Below are positions 1,800 through 64,000 of a DNA stretch of 64,000 bases, piece after piece (the stretch's first letter is position 1; each line of letters opens with the position of its first letter). Under the pieces are notes generated by a model. It did not search any database. It saw nothing but the letters and a program-made list of their open reading frames with translations, and was not told the DNA's origin. This DNA comes from Thainema sp. GTDB lineage: Bacteria > Cyanobacteriota > Cyanobacteriia > Phormidesmidales > Phormidesmidaceae. The position numbers and the translations under genes were made by a program. The stretch lies in the NCBI GenBank assembly GCA_052168235.1, contig JBQLZK010000039.1:1-64000 (forward strand). Reading direction: 5' to 3'.

Positions 1800-4700
1800 C
1801 TACACAGAAGCTTTCTCTTGCTGAAGGCTAATTCCCAAAACTTGGGTGTATGCCCCGCGAGCTTGAGTGACGCCAATTGTGCGTTCTGACGATTCAATCA
1901 TGGGTCGCCGCAGGCTGACAACAATAAATTGCGCTTGTTGAGCCTGGTGCTTGATCATTTTAGCTAATCGCTCTACGTTTGCCCCATCCAAGAACATATC
2001 TACTTCGTCAAACGAATAAAATGGTGACGGACGGTAGCGCTGCAGCGCAAAGATAAAGCTGAGTGCCGTGAGTGACTTTTCGCCCCCGGACATGGAAGCC
2101 AATCGGCGGACGGGCTTGCCTTTGGGATGGGCAATCAGGTTCAAGCCACCGCTAAACGGATCTTCTGGATTTTCCAGATCCAAATTACCGTCACCATCGG
2201 ACAGTTCAGCAAAGATCGCCTGGAAGTTAGTATTCACGGCATCAAAGGCTTCCCGGAAGGCTTGGCGGCGTAGGGTAGTGAAGTTTTCAACTCGGAGGAG
2301 TAGCTCCGTCCGCTCCTCTTCCAGCGTGGTCAGCTTTTGGCTCAGGTCTTCCAGGCGGGCTTGGGTACGGTCATACTCTTCCAAGGCCAGCATGTTGACG
2401 GGTTCCATTGCCTCCAATCGCCGCTGCAGCGATCGCAGTTCTTTCTGCAGTTCTTCCAAGGTTAAATCTTCAGGAATCTCCGGCAGCGGATCCGGTAATT
2501 CTGCCCGCTGAGCCGCTAGCTGTTCAACCAGTTCTGCCAGTTCCTGCTGGCGCTGCTGCTGGGATTCCGCTAGTTTTTCCTGCTGCCACTGGAGCTGCTG
2601 CTGCTGGGTTTGCTGATCCCGCAGTTGCCGCTCCTTCTGATCGCGCACCGCTTTTTCGGAAGCCAGGGTTTTGTCTAATTCTGCGATCGCACGCTTTGTT
2701 TCATCAATCCGCGCCTGGAGCTGCTGTTGCTGCTGAGTTAACTCAGTGGCTTGGCTGATCTGCTGAGTCTGTTGAGCGCGAATTGCTTGAATCTGGGCTT
2801 GGCCCTGCTGAATTTTTTCCTGGAGGCGCTGGGTTTGGTTTTCCAGATCTTGCGATCGCTGTTCAGCACTCCGTACAGCCAATTGGCGATTGCTCAGTTC
2901 GGTTTCCAACTGCCGCACTGCCGCTTGAATCTGCTGCCACTCGCTGTGGGTTTGCGACTGTTCCAAATCAGCTAGCACCTGGCGCTGCTGTTGGAGGTCA
3001 GTTTCCAATGCAGGCAGATTTGCCTCTAGCTGCTGGAGTCGTACCTGCGCCTGAGTTTGCTCTTGGGTAAACTGAGCAAGCTGCACCTGACCTTGACTTT
3101 GCTGCTCGGTCAACTGCTGAATTTGCGCGTCAAACTGCTGAACCTGTAGCTCCAGCTCACGGTGGGTTTGGCGCGCTTCCGTGATGCCCTGGCTGTATTG
3201 TTTGACGGCTGCCGTCGCTTTGTGAATCGCGTTTTCGCAGCGGATGAGAATTTTTTCGATTACGGCCAGCCGTTCCCGTAGCTGCATCGCTTCCTCGGAT
3301 TCGCCTGCTTCTACACGGCCAAAGTGCAGCGTTCCCTGACGAGCGTTAATGCTGCCGCCCGTCATTGCGCCGCTGGTTTCCAGCAGCTCTCCATCCAGCG
3401 TCACAATCCGATAGCTGCCCAAATTGCGCCGCGCTTCGGCAATGGATTCAAACACCACCGTGCCGCCAAATACATAGGCAAAGACATCCTGATAGCGGTC
3501 GTCGCACTCAATTAAGTTCTGGGCATAGTCAATAAAGCCTTCCGGACGCTGCCATGCCGCCACTTCTTGAAATCGAGGTGGGCGAATTTTATTTAGGGGC
3601 AAAAACGTGGCTCGTCCCGCCCGCTTTTGCTTCAGCAGCTCAATTGCCGCTGCGGCTACACCGTCATCTTCCACCACCAGATGGCCCAGTCGTCCCCCAG
3701 CCGCAATTTCTAGCGCCAGTTGATAACGCGGATCAACTCGACCTAGTTGCGCTACTAGCCCACAGATTCCCGGTAGCCCCGTCTCCAAAATTACGTTAGT
3801 GGCACGAGTACCCTGGCTTTCCTGCATGGCCTGGGTTTGCGCTTCCAGCTTGTCTAACTGCCGCTGCTTGTCCCGCTGCTCCTGGATCAGGCGCGTCTGG
3901 GTTTCTTGCTGCACCTGGAGTTCTTGCTCAGCGGCAGCGAGAGCCTGCGCTAAACCCTGCACCGTATTTTGTGCCCCACCAAGCTGATTATCCTGAATCT
4001 GCTTGCGCTGGCCTTCCTTGACGCTGAGGGTTTGAGCCAGCAAGCTTAAACTCTCGGTTTGCTCTTGAATTTTGATCTGAAGCTGATTGGTACGTTCCTG
4101 TAATCTCGCCTGCTCCGTTCGCTGCGGCTCAATCGTGCTCAGCAATGACTCGATCCGGTGACGTAGGTGAGTTTGTTCTTGTACCCATGCTTCTGAAGTG
4201 GCTGCGATCGCACTTACGGCTTCCCGCCGCTGCTCTAGCTGCTGCTGCACCTGATCGCGTTCAGCCTGAGCCGCTAGCCGCTGCTGTTCAACCTGACGCT
4301 GTTCCTGGATAATCCGCTCAATCTGCTGGGTATGTTCCTGAATCTCCTGCTGCGTCTTGGCAAGCTGCTCTGTCAGCTCTTGCTGCTTGGTTTTCCCCTC
4401 CTGCTCCTGCCGCTGAAGCTGGCGCAGTTCCGCCTCACGAGTTGCCAGGGCGGACTGGAGCGCCAAATGCTCATCTTCACCCAGCGCTTTGACGCGGACA
4501 TTGAGCTGTTCCAATTCCGCACTAGTTGCTTGAATCGTGGCCGACAGCGCCGCAAGCTGCTCCGCTAGTTCATTTAATGTTTTACGGCCAGCTTCTAGCT
4601 CTCTCTGAATCCGCTGTTCCCGTTTTTGCTGCTGCTGCCACTCCAGCACGCCTTCCCACTGGGCTTTTTCTTGCAGTTTCGCTCTTAGCTTTTGATATTT

Positions 4701-13023: not shown

Positions 13024-14151
13024 TTACAGCTTTACGCCAGGAATCTTATTCAGCCGAGCTGCAATCTTTTGGGACAGCTCAGCATAGCTGGTTTCGCCTG
13101 TGAGAACTTGACCCATGCGCTTGGTGGCAGCGGGACGCTTCAAGCCGACTTTGTAAGCAATTCCTGGCACCTTGTAGAACAGGCCAGAGATTTTCTTGGC
13201 GGTGTCTAAATTGCTGCCCCACTCACTGTTGAGGATCTGAGTGTAACCTTCGAGGGCATTGCTATTTCCGGCCAGTGCTGCATCAATCGCTTCAGCTGCT
13301 TTCACACCGCTAAACATAGCCGGACGAATGCCTTCACCGGAGAGTGGATCAACCAGGGCGGCAGCTTCTCCAGCCAGCAGCGCGTTTTGGGTGTGTAACG
13401 GTCGCTGTTCTTGCCAAAATGAGATCGGGTGACGATGAAGTTCGCCTGATCCTAATCCTAAAAAGGCAGCATAGTCAGTCAGTGGTTTTTGATAGTCGCT
13501 GGGCGCTTTGCCCCGGAAAGCGCAGGCCGAAATGGAGTAGCCATCTGCTTTTGGGAAAGCCCACAGGTTGCCGCTTTTCACTAAACCAATATCAAAGTGA
13601 GCGGTGGATGAACTTGCGCCTTTAATTTCCAGTACCTCTGCGTCTGTCGGTTCGGGCAGGTTGAACCCAAGCCACTTCGCCATCGGCCCTTTGGCCCCGT
13701 CTGCTGCGATCAGGTATTTCCCTTCAACCACACCATTCGAGGTGGTGACTTGCCAGTGGTCGGTGCTGAAGGAAATCCCAACTACTTCAGTGCGATCGCG
13801 CAGTTTTGCTCCCTTGGCTTGAGCCTGCTGCACCAGGAAATGATCAAATTTATCTCGCTCAACCATCCACATCGGTTCTGCGGTCGTCAATTGAGCTTCA
13901 ATGGGATCTTTACGCTGCCAGGTGTAGCGCACCTGATCTACCGTGCAGGAGATAACCGGACTGAAATCGAAATCAAACCACTGAGCGACAACAGGTGAAA
14001 CACCGCCGCTGCAAGGTTTGTATCGGGGTAGTGCAGCTCGTTCTACTAGTAAAACTGAATGACCTTTTTTCGCCAGATGATAAGCGGCTGATCCACCAGC
14101 AGGGCCTGCGCCTACGATAATACAGTCAAACATAGGGGGAGCTTCTCTCAC
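13024..14151 (-). CDS. Geranylgeranyl reductase-family FAD-dependent oxidoreductase (likely start ATG at 14133)
   Basis: GAGPAG FAD motif, PRYKPCSGG, LIAADG, GEAAALVDPLSGEGIRPA. Confidence 0.88.
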   Translation of the reverse strand: MREAPPMFDCIIVGAGPAGGSAAYHLAKKGHSVLLVERAALPRYKPCSGGVSPVVAQWFDFDFSPVISCTVDQVRYTWQRKDPIEAQLTTAEPMWMVERDKFDHFLVQQAQAKGAKLRDRTEVVGISFSTDHWQVTTSNGVVEGKYLIAADGAKGPMAKWLGFNLPEPTDAEVLEIKGASSSTAHFDIGLVKSGNLWAFPKADGYSISACAFRGKAPSDYQKPLTDYAAFLGLGSGELHRHPISFWQEQRPLHTQNALLAGEAAALVDPLSGEGIRPAMFSGVKAAEAIDAALAGNSNALEGYTQILNSEWGSNLDTAKKISGLFYKVPGIAYKVGLKRPAATKRMGQVLTGETSYAELSQKIAARLNKIPGVKL

Positions 14152-14559
14152 GGGATAAAGGACAGATACAGCGACAGATAGCGCATGTGCTTGTCACAAA
14201 GTAACCAAAGCAGAACCGAAAATTGCAGCTGAACTGGAGAAATTCATCGAGTTTTCATTTGTTTGGAAGGAGACAAACAAATTCTTTGAGATACGCTCAT
14301 ATCTTGTACCGTACCAAATTTGTTTTATAGCGATAGCTATATTGGTTAGGACGCGCGGCATCGCCGCGCTACAACAACGTCCGTGTCCCAACTTAGCTGG
14401 CTACAGCTACATCACAATGAACTTCAGTGTATACAGTACACAACAGAGTAGGATTTTGTATAACAAATATCAAAAGAGATACAAACTGAAACCGATAATC
14501 GGCGTACATTATGCTTGCTTTGAGAACGCTGTTGTTCATTGTTGAGATATTGGAAGACT

Positions 14560-15819
14560 ATGACTCATCATTCCCGCGATCGCATTTATTTCAAACGGCG
14601 ACAGGTTTTACAGGGAGCGGCAGGTTTTAGTGCAGCTCTATTACTGTCCAAGCTGACGGGTTGTGCTACAACGACGGATACTGGCGCAACGACCGATACA
14701 GGTGACGGTGCAGCGGCTTCGTCTGGACCAATCAAGCTGGGTCTAGTGGCGGCAGTCACTGGCCCATCTGCTGTCTCTGGTGAATCGATTACGCGGGGAT
14801 TAACCATTGCGCTGGAAGAAATCAACGCCAAGGGCGGCGTCATGGGTGGGCGACCGTTGGAATTGGTGATTCGCGATGATGAGTCTACCCCTGCCAAAGG
14901 AGTCGCGGCGGCGCGGGAACTGATTGAGCAAGAAAAAGTGGCGCTGGTATTTGGTGGACTAGATTCTCCGGTTTCGCTGGCGATGCTGCCTGTGTTCCAT
15001 GAGCTACAGGTGCCCTACATGGGCGTATGGGCAGCGGCGACGAACATTACCCGCAATGATTTTGACCCCAACTATGCCTTCCGCGTCTCGGCTAATGACA
15101 ACATCGTGGACAGCTATCTGTTGCGCTACGCCAAGAATGAAATCGGTGCCAGCAAAGTCGGCTTAGTGCTGATCAACAATCCCTGGGGTGAGTCGAACCA
15201 GGCGGGTTTTGAAGAGTGGGCACCGAAATACGACATCGAAATTGTTGGCATTGAGAAGTTTAATGATGGCGATACCGATATTTCGCCGCAGTTGGGTCGG
15301 CTTCAGGATGCTGGGGCAGAAGCGCTGCTGATGGTGGCTAATGCGGCTCCTTCTGCCCAGGCAATGAAGTCGCTAGTCCGGCTCGGTTGGGATGTGCCAG
15401 TTGTTTCCCACTGGGGGCCAACGGGCGGACGATTCCCAGAACTGGCGGGTCAAGAAGCGGCTGACCGGATTGTGTTTATGCAGACCTATAGCTTCTACGA
15501 TGCAGACGATCCGCTCTCAAAATCGGTCATGAGTAAGTTACAGGAAAAGTACAACGTGTCCGGGCCGCAGGATATTATCGCGCCTGTGGGAACCGCCAAC
15601 TCCTATGACGCGATGAATTTGGTGGCGCTGGCCCTCGATACCGCTGGCAGCACCGACGGGCCGACGCTGCGAGAGGCATTTTACAATTTGCCGACCTATG
15701 AAGGCTTGATTAAAACCTACGAGCAGCCTTTTTCTCCGGATAACCACGATGCTCTAAATGAGGATGACTATATCTTGGTGCAGTGGAAAGGTAATCAACT
15801 GGTGCCCTTTAAGGGATAG
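14560..15819 (+). CDS. Liv-type (HAAT) ABC transporter substrate-binding lipoprotein
   Basis: Twin-arginine-like leader KRRQVL, lipobox LTGC, EEINAKGGVMGGRPLELVIRDD; first ATG at 14560. Confidence 0.9.
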   Translation: MTHHSRDRIYFKRRQVLQGAAGFSAALLLSKLTGCATTTDTGATTDTGDGAAASSGPIKLGLVAAVTGPSAVSGESITRGLTIALEEINAKGGVMGGRPLELVIRDDESTPAKGVAAARELIEQEKVALVFGGLDSPVSLAMLPVFHELQVPYMGVWAAATNITRNDFDPNYAFRVSANDNIVDSYLLRYAKNEIGASKVGLVLINNPWGESNQAGFEEWAPKYDIEIVGIEKFNDGDTDISPQLGRLQDAGAEALLMVANAAPSAQAMKSLVRLGWDVPVVSHWGPTGGRFPELAGQEAADRIVFMQTYSFYDADDPLSKSVMSKLQEKYNVSGPQDIIAPVGTANSYDAMNLVALALDTAGSTDGPTLREAFYNLPTYEGLIKTYEQPFSPDNHDALNEDDYILVQWKGNQLVPFKG

Positions 15820-59630: not shown

Positions 59631-60083
59631 ATGACCCGAGAGATGCAAACGCCGCATCAGATGCTGGCTCAAACGCTCAGCGAACGACTGCCCGCCGAGA
59701 CGGTCACCGCTCTGATGGCTTATCCCGAAGTTGCCGCCGAGCTGGTGTCCCTATTAGAGGCTCCGCCCTTGGCGGCTGACTACGTGCCGCGTCAGATTGA
59801 GGTGCTCTTTGATGATGTCACCGTTCTGCAGTGGCAGGATGGCCAGCTCCAGTCTCACTGTCCCGATGTGGCGGCTGACTATCAGCCCGAGCGGATGGAG
59901 TGGCTCTTAGATGGTGAGACCGCCTATTTCTCAATTCAAGGGCTGGAGGTAATTAATCGTCTCACAACTCTACCAATACTTGCTCTGCACATTCTAGAAC
60001 CCTTCCAGGAGGACTTATGCAAGCCCCAGTCAATCCCGGTGAAGCCAAACAAATTGAACAGGACTATGCCCACACCACGCTAG
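59631..60083 (+). CDS. Hypothetical protein
   Basis: GGAGGA SD directly after the virD4 stop; internal duplication AADYVP/AADYQP. Confidence 0.7.
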   Translation: MTREMQTPHQMLAQTLSERLPAETVTALMAYPEVAAELVSLLEAPPLAADYVPRQIEVLFDDVTVLQWQDGQLQSHCPDVAADYQPERMEWLLDGETAYFSIQGLEVINRLTTLPILALHILEPFQEDLCKPQSIPVKPNKLNRTMPTPR

Positions 60084-61735
60084 CCGCAAGCGAAATAGCC
60101 ATGACGACGACTCAATCCACGGCGGATGCGGTTCATGCCTTTATTCAGACCCTGCGCGAGCGTCTTCAGGCGGCTCGGCCAGCGGAGAGCGATCAGGCAG
60201 CAGAGACGAGCGTCTCCACCCCTGAGGATTGGGTTGACGCCCCGACTCAGTTGCCGGAGCCGATCGAGATCAAGATGGGGCGGGAGATTGTCTACCGAGA
60301 CGGCTATGCCCACAAAGACCCGATCAATAAGCTCAATCCCAACACGCTGAAGCTGCTGCAGGCGGCAATTGATGCCTCGCCGTCTGAGGATGCGACGGCT
60401 ACTACTGAGATGAAAGGCACAATCAATATCAAGGCTGGAGATGATCTGGTATACCGGATGAGTCAAGGTACGGTTGAAACCAATCGGCTGCAGTCCAATC
60501 CGGTCGATTCGTCTGAGCCGGATCCGATAGAAACGACTCTACCCGCACCCGATGAACCGACTGTGCCGCTGGTTCAGGCAGAAGACGCGGTGCCGGTGGC
60601 TCAAGCTCCAGATCGTGACCCTCCACCCCCGTCAGTCGAACCCACTCCCTCTCCTGCGGTTGTTCAGGCAGAACCGACGATAGCTGTAGCGGATACAGCA
60701 CTAGCTTCTTCGGCTGACCCTACGCATTCCCCTCCGGTGGTTCAGACGGAATCAATGAGCCAACCTCAACAAGCAGTTGTAGAGGACACAGCGCCAGTTT
60801 CTTCCTCTGAGCCCGCTCATTCTCCTTCAGTGGTTCAATCCGCAGCGACAGTTCAACCTCAACAATCAACGGCAGCTCAGCCTCTGGCGCTGAGTTCCCC
60901 CAAGCTGGTCTCCATCCTGAACGTCCTGGAGCGTCAAAATCAGCAGGTCAAGCATCAGGCCGCTCGTAACTGGATGCAGCAGACGACCCGCATCATGCAG
61001 CGCTCCTCTCAGCAGGTTGCCGATCGGGTGGTGGCCATTGCCGCTCATATTCGCAGTCGCCAGGTGGCGGCAACAGCGGTGGATTTACTGCGCAAGTATG
61101 GTACATCCGAACGACCCGGTCGCGGCCTCTATCAGTCTGAGTCCTATACCCTGCGGGCCAGAGGTCGAATGATGACGATTGCAGATCGGGAAGGAACCGA
61201 ACTGATGATTGTACGCCAGACGCGCTGGGGACTCGATATCCTCAAAAACGATATGGGGGCTTCTCAAGAAGCTGAGTTTATGCGAGCCCGGCAGCAGATT
61301 CAGATTCAGGGCATTGATGGCCTTTCCTCAGAGCCGCCCCTGCGGGTGCGCCAGCTGGGTAATCTCGCCCCTGAGGGCGATCACGGCATTACCCGAGATT
61401 TGACAGCCTTGGCCCTAGCCCAAACGGCTCGCAAACTGCTGGATGTCACTGGCAGTCGGCCTAACATCCAGGGCAAGCGGGTCTTTCAGGGCGGCAGTCA
61501 GTATCGAATTGAGGAAACCCCCCATAGCCTCAAGGTGCAGACAACGGATCGGGGGGCCATTCTCAGTATTGACAATGGCAAAATTCACTCAGAGCTGAAG
61601 TCGCGCGATGTGGCCTACTTCCGATTTATTGATCGGGAGCTGAGTCGGGATCTGCAGGCGTCTGTCTCAACGAGCGTGACGCCGCTGAATCGGACGGCCC
61701 GATCTCGTCGAGCTGGGCTGGCTATGGGCGAGTAG
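60017..61735 (+). CDS. Hypothetical protein with Pro/Ser-rich repeated linker and Arg-rich C terminus
   Basis: AGGAGG SD at 60007-60012; repeats SVEPTPSPAVVQ / SADPTHSPPVVQ / SSEPAHSPSVVQ. Confidence 0.75.
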   Translation: MQAPVNPGEAKQIEQDYAHTTLAASEIAMTTTQSTADAVHAFIQTLRERLQAARPAESDQAAETSVSTPEDWVDAPTQLPEPIEIKMGREIVYRDGYAHKDPINKLNPNTLKLLQAAIDASPSEDATATTEMKGTINIKAGDDLVYRMSQGTVETNRLQSNPVDSSEPDPIETTLPAPDEPTVPLVQAEDAVPVAQAPDRDPPPPSVEPTPSPAVVQAEPTIAVADTALASSADPTHSPPVVQTESMSQPQQAVVEDTAPVSSSEPAHSPSVVQSAATVQPQQSTAAQPLALSSPKLVSILNVLERQNQQVKHQAARNWMQQTTRIMQRSSQQVADRVVAIAAHIRSRQVAATAVDLLRKYGTSERPGRGLYQSESYTLRARGRMMTIADREGTELMIVRQTRWGLDILKNDMGASQEAEFMRARQQIQIQGIDGLSSEPPLRVRQLGNLAPEGDHGITRDLTALALAQTARKLLDVTGSRPNIQGKRVFQGGSQYRIEETPHSLKVQTTDRGAILSIDNGKIHSELKSRDVAYFRFIDRELSRDLQASVSTSVTPLNRTARSRRAGLAMGE

Positions 61736-61737
61736 GG

Positions 61738-64000
61738 ATGAACGGGCGCATCTATCCCCAGCTGATTGATGCCTTTGCCCGTCAGTTTGACGCGGGGGGG
61801 CGTTTGGCCACCATCACCGCCGCTCGACAGCAGGCCGCTGAGGTGTTGGGCGAACCCGTAAAGCCCGGTACCCCCCTAGCCAAGCAGGTGGATGAAGCCG
61901 TGGAAGCAGCGGTGGTTCGGGCCGCACAGACCCTTCTGCGTACTTCGGCCACCCCGCATGATTGCTATGCGCGACTAGTCGATCTGCACGAGCGGCAACC
62001 GGCGCTCACGGTTCGCTCCTCTACCAGCGTCCTGCAGCAAGCCTACAGTACACCGATTCCGATTGCGTTTCTCGCCTCTACCCTGGCTGGGATCACCCCA
62101 GAGGCCACCGTGTATGAGCCGACGGCTGGACATGGCGCACTGCTGATCGGCACAGATCCGGCTCAGGTGACGGTAAATGAGATCAATCCAGATCGAGCCG
62201 CTGACCTCCGTGCCCAGGGCTACACCGTCACTCAGTTCGATGCTAGTGAGTACCAGCCTAACCAGCAGCATGATGTCATCATCTGCAATCCCCCCTTTGG
62301 CTCCATCAAAGACGAACAGCTCCACACTCGCCGCTTCCCCATGGCTGACACCTGGACGACCCAAATCGACCAGGTGATTGCTCTGAGGGCGCTAACCGTG
62401 ATGAAACCCGAGGGGCGAGCCGTGCTGATTCTCGGCGGGAAGCGAGGCCATGAGGAGGAACTGCGCTCGCAGCGTTATAACACCCGTGAAAGTCGCGCCT
62501 TCTACTACCTCCTGTATCAGCAGTATCGGGTCACGCAGCATTTGTCTATTTCAGGAGACCTCTACCGCAAGCAAGGCGCAGGCTTTCCCATTGATCTAAT
62601 TGTCATTGAAGGAAAAGGCCCCTCTGATCGACCGTTGCCCGCTGCCCAGGTGCCATCCATCTATCAAACGTTTGCCGAACTTAAGGAGCAATTGCCTCAT
62701 GAATCCCGCCGACACCCACACCCAATCTCGCTGGATTTATCCCTTCATGACCTCCCACTATCCCACCTTTCCCCATCTTTGGCAGCCGGAGGCAATGGGA
62801 GTGTTATTTATCGTCAAAGTGCCGCCCGATCTAGAGAGCCTGCAGGAACCCACCTATCTAGCCCTGATGCAGACGCGCTTAGACCAGCTGATTCAGGACT
62901 GGGCAGCGGCAACGTCTCAAATCGAAACTCAGCAGCGACTCGCAACCCATCTCAGTCAGCTGGACTCCGCTCAGGAAATCCCTCTATGGGAGCGGGACGA
63001 AGATTTGGAATTCGCCCTAAGCCAGTGGCGACAGCAGTGGAGCGAGACCTTGATCCTCAGCAACTGGCGGTTTCGGGATCGGATGGCGCACTACGGCCTG
63101 ACCTTTCCAGCAGTACCGATGGCACCGAGTCACCCCAGTCATCCCGACGCTCTGGCCCTTCACAACGAGACCACCCTGGAGGACTGGCTCAGCAACCTAA
63201 CTCTGTAACGCTTCACCCAGAGGCTCCTATGAATACCTCGCTTTCATCTGCCACACCTGAAACTGGGTCGGCAGACGCCTACGATATCCAGCCCCGCCAG
63301 GTGCCCTATGTGCCCAAAAGCAAGGGTTCTTCTACCCAAACGCTGATTCCCTGCAATATGGCCAGTGCAGCTCAGCAAGCCCTCGACCAGTTCGAGCAGC
63401 AGCATGGCGATATTGATGTCTATCTGGCTACCCGGTTAGGTTACGGCTCCGTTGCAGAGCTGCACCAATACTTCAGTGCCGAGCAGGTGGATGCTGCCGC
63501 CCTGGCGATCGGCAACCTGGAACAAGGGGCAGGCTTCATCACTGGTGATCAGACCGGCATCGGTAAGGGGCGTATCTGTGCCAGCATCATGCGCTATGCC
63601 CAGCAGCAGGGCAAAATTGCCATCTTTATCACCAAAGACAAGCCCCTCTATGCCGACATGATGCGCGATGTGGGCGATATCGGGATACGGCAATTTACGC
63701 CTTTCATCACCGACAGCAGCACTGAAATTCCCCTGGCCAACGGAGCTGCCTTGAAGACGGCAGGAGCAGCGAAGCAAAAAGAAGAGATGCAGGCGCTGAT
63801 ACAACAGGGCAATCTGGGACATTACAGTGCTGTCTTTACCACCTACAGCCAGCTGCAGACGGTAGGGAAGAAGGAACCGCTGAGACGGAATTTCCTACGA
63901 AAACTGGCTCCCCAGGCGATTCTAATTCTGGATGAAGCTCACCAAGCGGGCGGCAGCAAAGGGGGTTGGAAAGAAGCGGAACCTCCGGATCGGGCCGACT
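61738..64000 (+). CDS. Large N6-adenine methyltransferase + strawberry-notch-type SF2 helicase (DarB-like), 3' end outside the window
   Basis: Manual translation from ATG 61738 has no stop up to 64000; YEPTAGHGAL (motif I), ICNPPFG (62287-62298), GDQTGIGKGR (63544-63573), FTTYSQL, ILDEAH (63931-63942); absent from the ORF track because it is unterminated. Confidence 0.88.
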   Translation, partial: MNGRIYPQLIDAFARQFDAGGRLATITAARQQAAEVLGEPVKPGTPLAKQVDEAVEAAVVRAAQTLLRTSATPHDCYARLVDLHERQPALTVRSSTSVLQQAYSTPIPIAFLASTLAGITPEATVYEPTAGHGALLIGTDPAQVTVNEINPDRAADLRAQGYTVTQFDASEYQPNQQHDVIICNPPFGSIKDEQLHTRRFPMADTWTTQIDQVIALRALTVMKPEGRAVLILGGKRGHEEELRSQRYNTRESRAFYYLLYQQYRVTQHLSISGDLYRKQGAGFPIDLIVIEGKGPSDRPLPAAQVPSIYQTFAELKEQLPHESRRHPHPISLDLSLHDLPLSHLSPSLAAGGNGSVIYRQSAARSREPAGTHLSSPDADALRPADSGLGSGNVSNRNSAATRNPSQSAGLRSGNPSMGAGRRFGIRPKPVATAVERDLDPQQLAVSGSDGALRPDLSSSTDGTESPQSSRRSGPSQRDHPGGLAQQPNSVTLHPEAPMNTSLSSATPETGSADAYDIQPRQVPYVPKSKGSSTQTLIPCNMASAAQQALDQFEQQHGDIDVYLATRLGYGSVAELHQYFSAEQVDAAALAIGNLEQGAGFITGDQTGIGKGRICASIMRYAQQQGKIAIFITKDKPLYADMMRDVGDIGIRQFTPFITDSSTEIPLANGAALKTAGAAKQKEEMQALIQQGNLGHYSAVFTTYSQLQTVGKKEPLRRNFLRKLAPQAILILDEAHQAGGSKGGWKEAEPPDRAD
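62699..63208 (+). CDS. Probable nested gene (169 aa) in the +1 frame of the methylase-helicase linker
   Basis: AAGGAG at 62683-62688, ATG at 62699; amphipathic Trp/Leu-rich product while the host frame is S/G/P/R-rich over the same span. Confidence 0.6.
   Translation: MNPADTHTQSRWIYPFMTSHYPTFPHLWQPEAMGVLFIVKVPPDLESLQEPTYLALMQTRLDQLIQDWAAATSQIETQQRLATHLSQLDSAQEIPLWERDEDLEFALSQWRQQWSETLILSNWRFRDRMAHYGLTFPAVPMAPSHPSHPDALALHNETTLEDWLSNLTL

Follow-up and report, generated by a model that had tools for sequence, protein, structure and literature searches.

A frame of 169 codons, very probably a gene, nested within a methyltransferase-strawberry-notch helicase gene of a cyanobacterium

The locus and its reading frames

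The window analyzed here covers positions 1-64,000 of contig C39 (JBQLZK010000039.1) from the cyanobacterium Thainema sp. (GCA_052168235.1). Close to its end, a large open reading frame (ORF), the main ORF, starts at ATG 61738 and stays open to the window end. On the whole contig it encodes a polyvalent protein of 2219 amino acids (aa), in which a methyltransferase is joined to a strawberry-notch-type helicase. Positions 62699-63208, lying between these two parts, are very probably a real protein-coding gene of their own, nested on the same strand in the +1 frame of the giant gene. Such a nested gene, with an internal restart for the helicase behind it, had been proposed from the letters of the window and their translations alone (the sequence-only reading). 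The features of the locus are as follows.

61738..64000, + strand: main ORF, methyltransferase/strawberry-notch-type helicase polyvalent protein, 5' part; it continues to contig position 68397
61738..62697, + strand: N-terminal region and methyltransferase domain, conserved in alignment A3; purifying selection in the main frame
62683..62688, + strand: predicted Shine-Dalgarno sequence (SD) AAGGAG of the nested gene, within the main-frame Lys-Glu codons of the motif ELKE
62698..63279, + strand: main-frame inter-domain linker, about residues 321-514; open, with no protein conservation
62699..63208, + strand: putative nested gene for the 169-aa acidic protein P0001, in the +1 frame relative to the main ORF; ATG 62699, TAA 63206-63208
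63219..63231, + strand: AGAGG (63219-63223), 5 nt, and main-frame ATG 63229 (Met498); candidate re-initiation site, from the sequence
63280..64000, + strand: first section of the helicase part, conserved in alignment A3 (QPRQVPYVPKS..., P-loop GDQTGIGKGR, DEAH); main-frame dN/dS (ratio of nonsynonymous to synonymous substitution rates) 0.01-0.06

In the 2219-aa protein, Pfam finds N6-methyltransferase-type matches (N6_Mtase and UPF0020) at residues 163-232, the strawberry-notch helicase domains AAA_34 at 596-848 and Helicase_C_4 at 1038-1264, then DUF6908 at 1723-1829 and MutS_I at 1869-1943. The helicase part also gives ResIII and DEAD matches besides AAA_34, and the motifs NPPFG, GIGKGR and DEAH can be read directly. 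The main-frame spacer between the methyltransferase and the helicase is of a different kind. It is rich in Ser, Pro, Ala, Gly and Arg and includes SGLGSGNVSNRNSAATRNPSQSAGLRSG, and residues 321-500 have an isoelectric point (pI) of 9.9 and 16.7% Ser. The low-complexity stretch between the two domains is thus present as it had been described.

A conserved acidic protein in the +1 frame

The +1 ORF was found as claimed, with ATG 62699, TAA 63206-63208, 169 codons and the motifs quoted for it. It overlaps the main ORF over 510 nt and would encode a 19-kDa protein, P0001, with a pI of 4.85 and a net charge of -12. In a six-frame search with P0001, matches were obtained in 49 of the 173 genomes of the family Phormidesmidaceae, with a best E of 4e-98. 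Their identity ranges from 88% down to about 30%, and the matching frames are open over about 160-200 aa. A sample of the phylum comprising 401 genomes gave matches in 8, which are spread over four families. Relatives are also present in the protein database (35 proteins of 101-171 aa), all of them nameless or "hypothetical" and none with a Pfam domain. A profile alignment of 37 small-protein members, A1, was searched against 1.84 billion representatives and retrieved 83 clusters, nearly all of 57-218 aa.

The alignment of the small proteins shows 15 invariant residues and clear motifs. All 45 tabulated members are acidic (pI 4.1-5.0, net charge -5 to -17) and contain 6-10 Trp. On the basis of A1, AlphaFold2 (AF2) gives a mostly helical model with a predicted local distance difference test score (pLDDT) of 86.5 and a predicted template modelling score (pTM) of 0.84, which agrees with the globular and helical look that had been noticed in the translation. 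The ESM Atlas gave no usable match for the small protein. The search by hidden Markov models and structure that had been suggested for the 169-aa peptide therefore ends with a confident fold for which the Pfam and structure searches return no match.

Selection in the three frames

Selection was compared frame by frame across related loci. In six groups of loci, dN/dS is 0.17-0.52 in the small (+1) frame, 1.3-1.9 in the main frame and 1.1-1.3 in the third frame. Sliding windows over 15 loci (105 pairs) locate the change. In the methyltransferase part, dN/dS is 0.11-0.29 in the main frame and above 1 in the +1 frame; over the small ORF the main frame rises to 1.35-2.2, and the +1 frame falls to 0.19-0.28, a drop confined to the ORF; in the helicase part, the main frame returns to 0.01-0.06 and the +1 frame exceeds 2. 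The per-frame comparison over 62699-63208, which had been named as a check, accordingly finds purifying selection in the +1 frame there (about 0.2).

Amino acid identities follow the same pattern. One locus shares 73% nucleotide identity with the window; its amino acid identity is 72% in the small frame, compared with 47% in the main frame and 48% in the closed third frame. In A3, an alignment of 27 of the big proteins, both flanks are conserved, and the linker between them is unalignable, with columns of about 346-545 lacking conservation. A spurious frame had been expected to be broken by stops in homologues, beside a main-frame linker conserved at the amino acid level; the outcome is the opposite. 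These comparisons of aligned loci show that amino acid selection over 62699-63208 acts on the small frame and not on the main frame. Judged from them, the main-frame linker is an out-of-frame reading, or "shadow," of the nested gene.

Start signals of the nested gene

The AAGGAG located 10 nt before ATG 62699 was confirmed, and both elements are kept among relatives. The nested ATG is present in all 40 loci compared, while the main-frame codon overlapping it varies (CAT, AAT, GAT or TAT, which are His, Asn, Asp and Tyr, with G next). AAGGAG is found in 37 of the 40, at a spacing of N9-10 to the ATG. The synonymous sites within it are also restricted. The Lys codon of the SD is AAG in 40/40 loci, as against 56% AAG among Lys codons across these ORFs, and its Glu codon is GAG in 37/38, as against 52% overall; the neighboring Leu codon varies freely among five synonyms. 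The frozen synonymous sites imply selection on the SD nucleotides themselves and not merely on the main-frame ELKE. In the six distant loci L063-68, an SD-like GAGAGG-N9-ATG precedes the +1 ORF. In many loci, moreover, the small frame has a stop 2-3 codons before the ATG, between it and the SD. Entry by frameshift is excluded in those loci, and independent initiation is indicated.

With a protein conserved from 88% to about 30% identity, a dN/dS of about 0.2 and an SD and ATG of its own that have been kept, the nested gene of the sequence-only reading is strongly supported.

Two frames kept open across related loci

The arrangement was followed in 68 loci oriented on the small ORF, of which 40 come from the same family, 6 from other families and 2 from annotated plasmids, and 20 are paralogues whose big protein is only 38-48% identical. 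The main frame is stop-free over the small ORF in 67 of the 68, and its offset from the small frame is always minus one. None of the loci has an open third frame; 5-20 stops occur in it in each of 67 loci, and 85 over the 1962-codon fused frame of the remaining one, L023, which is the sole exception in the main frame and is a second copy in one genome. When synonymous codons of the small ORF were shuffled (5000 trials for each of 9 divergent representatives), only 0.02-8.3% of the shuffles had a stop-free main frame, 2-6 stops being expected, and in none was the third frame open. The main frame is open in far more loci than the shuffles give, so that it must be actively kept open. As these comparisons of codons and frames show, the main frame over the nested gene is under selection solely to remain open, which keeps the methyltransferase and the helicase in one polypeptide.

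Eight distant paralogues (L061-68, set A2 of the most distant nested ORFs) are beyond the reach of the A1 profile, yet carry a +1 ORF of 176-186 codons in the same place and with the same order of motifs. Their nested ORFs are likely homologous to the family, mainly as judged by place, frame, length and motif order. An AF2 model built on these 8 rows has a pLDDT of 49.1, too poor for comparison with the A1 model.

Several loci depart from the common form or repeat it. In L023 (G007:C1:6928000-6940000, about 4106-4607), the frame shifts by one base shortly before the small ORF would end. Residues 1-149 of the small protein are thereby joined to the helicase in a frame of 1962 aa that begins at the small-ORF ATG, and the methyltransferase frame ends. 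The locus may be a natural variant or a pseudogene, or the shift may be an indel from long-read sequencing. One-off frameshift forms also occur in the database, where P0083 is a methyltransferase fused to the small protein and P0100 is a small protein running into the main frame. In L004 (G020) and L022 (G009), the big gene is broken outside the overlap and the small ORF is intact; L004 has a stop just upstream of the overlap, and in L022 the main frame is open for only 273 aa and the SD is degraded to AAGGGA. The genome of the window itself has a second, distant copy of the whole arrangement (G000 contig C15, 31243-31632, - strand; L051, L059), with a big protein 42% identical and a +1 ORF of 158 codons that matches the A1 profile with E 8e-8 (1e-10 in a separate search with a hidden Markov model).

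A candidate restart for the helicase

The sequence-only reading had also pointed to ATG 63229, twenty nt after the small stop and in the main frame, preceded by GAGG, as a start for a helicase-only form. These elements are present, the motif being AGAGG. A main-frame ATG lies 2-29 nt downstream of the small stop in 30 of 37 loci, so that this part of the proposal has some following among relatives; the restart itself is neither family-wide nor established. In L024-27, the next main-frame ATG is 104-110 nt past the small stop, L036-38 have GTG in its place, and among the distant L061-68 it lies near the small stop only in L061 and is absent from the other seven. An SD-like motif ahead of it is found in the window and its three nearest relatives and is missing from the large g12 group. 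An ATG so near the small stop would arise by chance in 4-19% of cases per locus, and the carriers form a handful of related groups. Being patchy and restricted to a few related groups, the restart ATG does not make a helicase-only isoform a defining feature of the family. Re-initiation at ATG 63229 may possibly yield a helicase-only product in this lineage.

Genomic surroundings

The start codon of the giant gene follows the stop of the preceding gene by 2 nt, and the SD in front of it is poor. Junctions throughout its operon are 4-nt or 2-nt start/stop. Its neighbors, in tightly coupled cistrons, encode an M23 peptidase, a coupling protein of a type IV secretion system (T4SS) and a primase-polymerase (Prim-Pol); such packed cistrons with these products mark this as a conjugative element. 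Homologues of the giant protein sit on cyanobacterial plasmids, with Synechococcus sp. NIES-970 (plasmid3) and Leptolyngbya sp. NIES-3755 among the culturable carriers; one of the plasmids is typed MOBF. A scan of 61300-63500 for promoters and terminators, which was a crude one, found nothing.

Just upstream of the giant gene, two ORFs on the + strand (59631-60083 and 60017-61735) overlap by 67 nt in different frames. The product of the second (572 aa) has a middle part rich in Pro, Ser and Ala and no Pfam match. Faintly similar, colinear sequence is seen in the last 70 or so residues of the giant protein and of the downstream Prim-Pol (RQFRGKTYALTQTPERLIVR vs RRVQGRQYQIAAEGPMLTVK; BLASTP E 3.8), at L002 12949-13395 vs 13395-14798 (contig C39, past the window).

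Possible expression and function

Both proteins would be translated from one operon mRNA; as there is no promoter-like site inside the giant gene, nothing signals a separate transcript for the nested gene. Ribosomes started at 61738 would read through the spacer and produce the giant enzyme, and other ribosomes would bind the strong internal SD and produce the 19-kDa acidic protein. Since initiation on the giant gene depends on a weak SD and a coupled start, the small protein would probably be the more abundant of the two. The nesting would make both genes inseparable.

With low confidence, the small acidic protein may be regarded as an accessory factor of the giant DNA-binding enzyme. This guess draws on four points: the strict confinement of the ORF to one host gene, the acidity of the product, the strength of the nested SD next to a giant gene with weak initiation, and the probable export of the giant protein. 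It may be a chaperone or an inhibitor that restrains the giant enzyme in the donor, like the small acidic chaperones of T4SS substrates. Export of the giant protein is suggested as probable by the concept of polyvalent proteins (PMC5512222) and by the faint C-terminal likeness, and we infer by analogy that the protein may have anti-restriction activity and be delivered alongside DNA. Complex prediction of the small protein with the methyltransferase part (1-325) and the helicase part (505-905) gave a score of 0.00; it was run without controls and counts neither way.

A more extended proposal, which as a whole seems doubtful, is that what appears as a linker is a complete gene, encoding a protein of unseen fold, read out of frame, and that the locus would make three products, namely the full methylase-helicase, an abundant acidic partner masking or chaperoning it in the donor, and a lineage-specific helicase-only form via ATG 63229. 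If this were true, nesting would enforce co-inheritance and a fixed expression ratio. A reading of the locus as three separate genes was rejected.

Alternative explanations

Several points weigh against a nested gene. dN/dS by the method of Nei and Gojobori (NG86) is biased in overlapping regions. The 68 loci are relatives and not independent samples. The SD overlaps the conserved main-frame motif ELKE, which may be in part the source of its conservation. The distant set A2 aligns to the A1 family in hhalign with E 0.0043 at a probability of only 8%. P0001 has no family match in Pfam, PADLOC or NCBIfam, and its best hit in PHROGs (E 0.084) assigns it to no family. Searches with the predicted fold found nothing convincing in the Protein Data Bank (PDB; Foldseek, best E 1.1) or in a wide search with VIA-align (best Z 4.3), and the best E among the viral predicted structures of BFVD was 0.96. 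Finally, the gene is known here from sequence comparison.

In one rival explanation, the +1 ORF would be a compositional accident in a low-complexity linker and would code for nothing; linkers tolerate change, alternative frames can open by chance, and Pfam, PHROGs, PADLOC and NCBIfam have no match to offer. However, a chance frame would hardly keep recognizable relatives at about 30% identity, reach a best E of 4e-98, have a dN/dS near 0.2 in the +1 frame only, keep its ATG and SD and give a confident fold, and it is the main frame, not the small one, that looks like the non-coding frame. The accident is scarcely credible, and it was rejected on protein conservation, frame identities and dN/dS. 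Slightly less far-fetched, although still very improbable, is recoding, in which the small-frame sequence would be a domain of the giant protein, with no free small protein; ribosomes would enter it through a programmed +1 frameshift close to the SD and leave it through a -1 shift. In prfB and dnaX, for example, frameshifting can be stimulated by an internal SD, and the fused forms P0083, P0100 and L023 do exist. But those forms are single records, best read as indels, and outside L023 the small frame ends in a stop everywhere. Under recoding, the main frame would not need to be open, yet it is open in 67/68 loci where 2-6 stops are expected; this, the stops 2-3 codons before the ATG in many loci and the invariance of the ATG itself (40/40) led to the rejection of a double frameshift.

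The remaining alternatives accept that the nested frame is translated and differ as to its product. Translation may merely deliver ribosomes to ATG 63229 for a helicase-only isoform, the peptide being irrelevant, and the ATG 2-29 nt past the small stop in 30/37 loci, with AGAGG 5 nt ahead of it in the window, would suit such a regulatory ORF. An irrelevant peptide, however, would not be expected to stay acidic, to have 15 invariant residues and a confidently predicted fold, or to show a dN/dS of about 0.2, and the ATG is away from the stop in L024-27, replaced by GTG in L036-38 and absent in 7/8 of L061-68; with a chance of 4-19% per locus and carriers in few related groups, this explanation is quite unlikely. 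The main alternative to the role of accessory factor is that the nested product works alone, for example as an acidic DNA mimic of the ArdA/Ocr type that acts against restriction by the defences of the recipient, with no partnership with the giant enzyme. The strong acidity characteristic of the ArdA/Ocr class is seen in 45/45 members (pI 4.1-5.0, net charge -5 to -17). Their charge density is below what we take to be that of ArdA and Ocr, which speaks against such a mimic. The host gene belongs to the dyad of which DarB, an anti-restriction protein, is the archetype (PMC5512222, in the part of that paper accessible to us), and conjugative elements carry clustered anti-defence genes, according to the accessible part of PMC11541004. 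Against independent action, neither Foldseek nor VIA matched ArdA, Ocr or any other solved structure, which is no proof of absence, and the ORF is nested in one host gene in 68/68 loci and never free-standing, which suggests a link with that gene. We give independent action a small but real chance. The reading retained here is a nested gene with a protein product of its own, for which the part of an accessory factor is a tentative suggestion.

Comparison with known systems

Genes nested in one another have been known from phages. Rz1 of lambda (about 60 codons) is wholly embedded in the +1 frame of Rz, on the same strand and with its own start, and the two products cooperate. The present gene is likewise wholly embedded on the same strand in the +1 frame with its own start signals. 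Unlike Rz1, it has 169 codons in a host of 2219 codons, the host segment is without amino acid constraint, and a partnership of the products is only conjectured. In bacterial chromosomes, comS is nested out of frame on the same strand of srfA in Bacillus subtilis and encodes fewer than 50 aa. A similar example is GndA, of fewer than 50 aa, in a same-strand out-of-frame ORF within gnd of Escherichia coli, as described in the accessible part of the report (PMC11230408). These cases share with the present one a same-strand out-of-frame ORF with an internal start inside a larger bacterial gene; unlike them, the 169-aa protein is predicted to be folded and is conserved across several cyanobacterial families.

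A functional parallel may be VirE1 of Agrobacterium, an acidic chaperone of about 7 kDa for the DNA-binding T4SS substrate VirE2, encoded upstream of it. Here too, a small acidic protein would be encoded in cis with a large DNA-binding protein of a type IV secretion element and translationally tied to it. Unlike VirE1, the present gene is nested, its product has no sequence or fold likeness to VirE1 that could be found, and binding is conjectural.

Only a few long overlapping genes are known in bacteria; most are antisense, their taxonomic range is narrow and their status disputed, and annotation pipelines forbid them. Long antisense overlapping genes of E. coli and Pseudomonas aeruginosa are presented, in the accessible portions of the reports, as evolutionarily novel and expression-based (PMC8850804, PMC7103648, PMC9927249). 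As far as those portions go, they resemble the present gene in being long overlaps excluded by annotation pipelines, with purifying selection among the claimed support. They differ from it in that the present overlap is same-strand and deeply conserved, with a frame swap of selection, and in that it is known from sequences and theirs from expression.

The host gene resembles the DarB-type methylase-helicase dyad; in the accessible text of Iyer et al., 2017 (PMC5512222), DarB is the anti-restriction archetype of polyvalent proteins. As in that description, the host gene combines an N6-adenine methyltransferase, a strawberry-notch helicase of superfamily 2 (SF2) and MutS-I on a conjugative element. 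By Pfam, the methyltransferase is fused N-terminally to the SF2 helicase in one polypeptide, as in a DarB-like dyad, and the gene has the location, on a phage or conjugative element, that is expected of a polyvalent protein. The same text treats polyvalent proteins as scarce in cyanobacteria, and the word "overlapping" is absent from the part accessible.

Compared with these systems, what appears to be new is the length and the depth of conservation of an overlap in bacterial, non-phage DNA, a host segment that would be a pure out-of-frame reading acting as an inter-domain spacer, and a protein family without any relative. On the evidence of the aligned loci, the nested pair shows with unusual clarity, for bacteria, how a single stretch of DNA encodes two proteins. 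It would offer a strong and easily testable model for the sharing of DNA by two proteins, for a spacer dictated by another gene and for the origin of such pairs. An ATG-to-ACG change, silent in the main frame (CAT to CAC), could cleanly remove the small protein. The toolkit of conjugative elements would also gain an unannotated acidic protein belonging to no family, inside a type of gene linked to anti-restriction.

Origin and annotation

Homologues of the giant gene on two proteobacterial plasmids, from Vogesella (NZ_CP085531.1, L074) and Cupriavidus (NZ_OP484953.1, L075), were compared with the window. Between the aligned methyltransferase and helicase blocks, the spacer is 27 residues in Vogesella vs 195 in the protein of the window, and 112 in Cupriavidus vs 231. 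No +1 ORF was found in the spacer of either homologue. The spacer of about 170 residues and the nested gene occur together, and they look like a cyanobacterial addition. The nested gene may have been either born in an expanding linker or captured between the halves of the enzyme.

The prediction that standard gene callers would drop the nested gene is borne out by plasmid records. In two of them the nested ORF is unannotated inside a coding sequence (CDS) called "strawberry notch C-terminal domain-containing protein" or "putative helicase," and the third record shows just a "helicase domain protein" CDS at the matching position. At least 67 of the examined loci would hold a real gene omitted by standard callers. 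Within the portion of the literature accessible to the search, no description of this nested gene was found. The few database copies that have an NCBI name are called "hypothetical protein." One of these, P0028, equals the small protein of L022 in length, pI, charged residues and Trp count; callers thus seem to pick up the ORF where its host gene has become a pseudogene.

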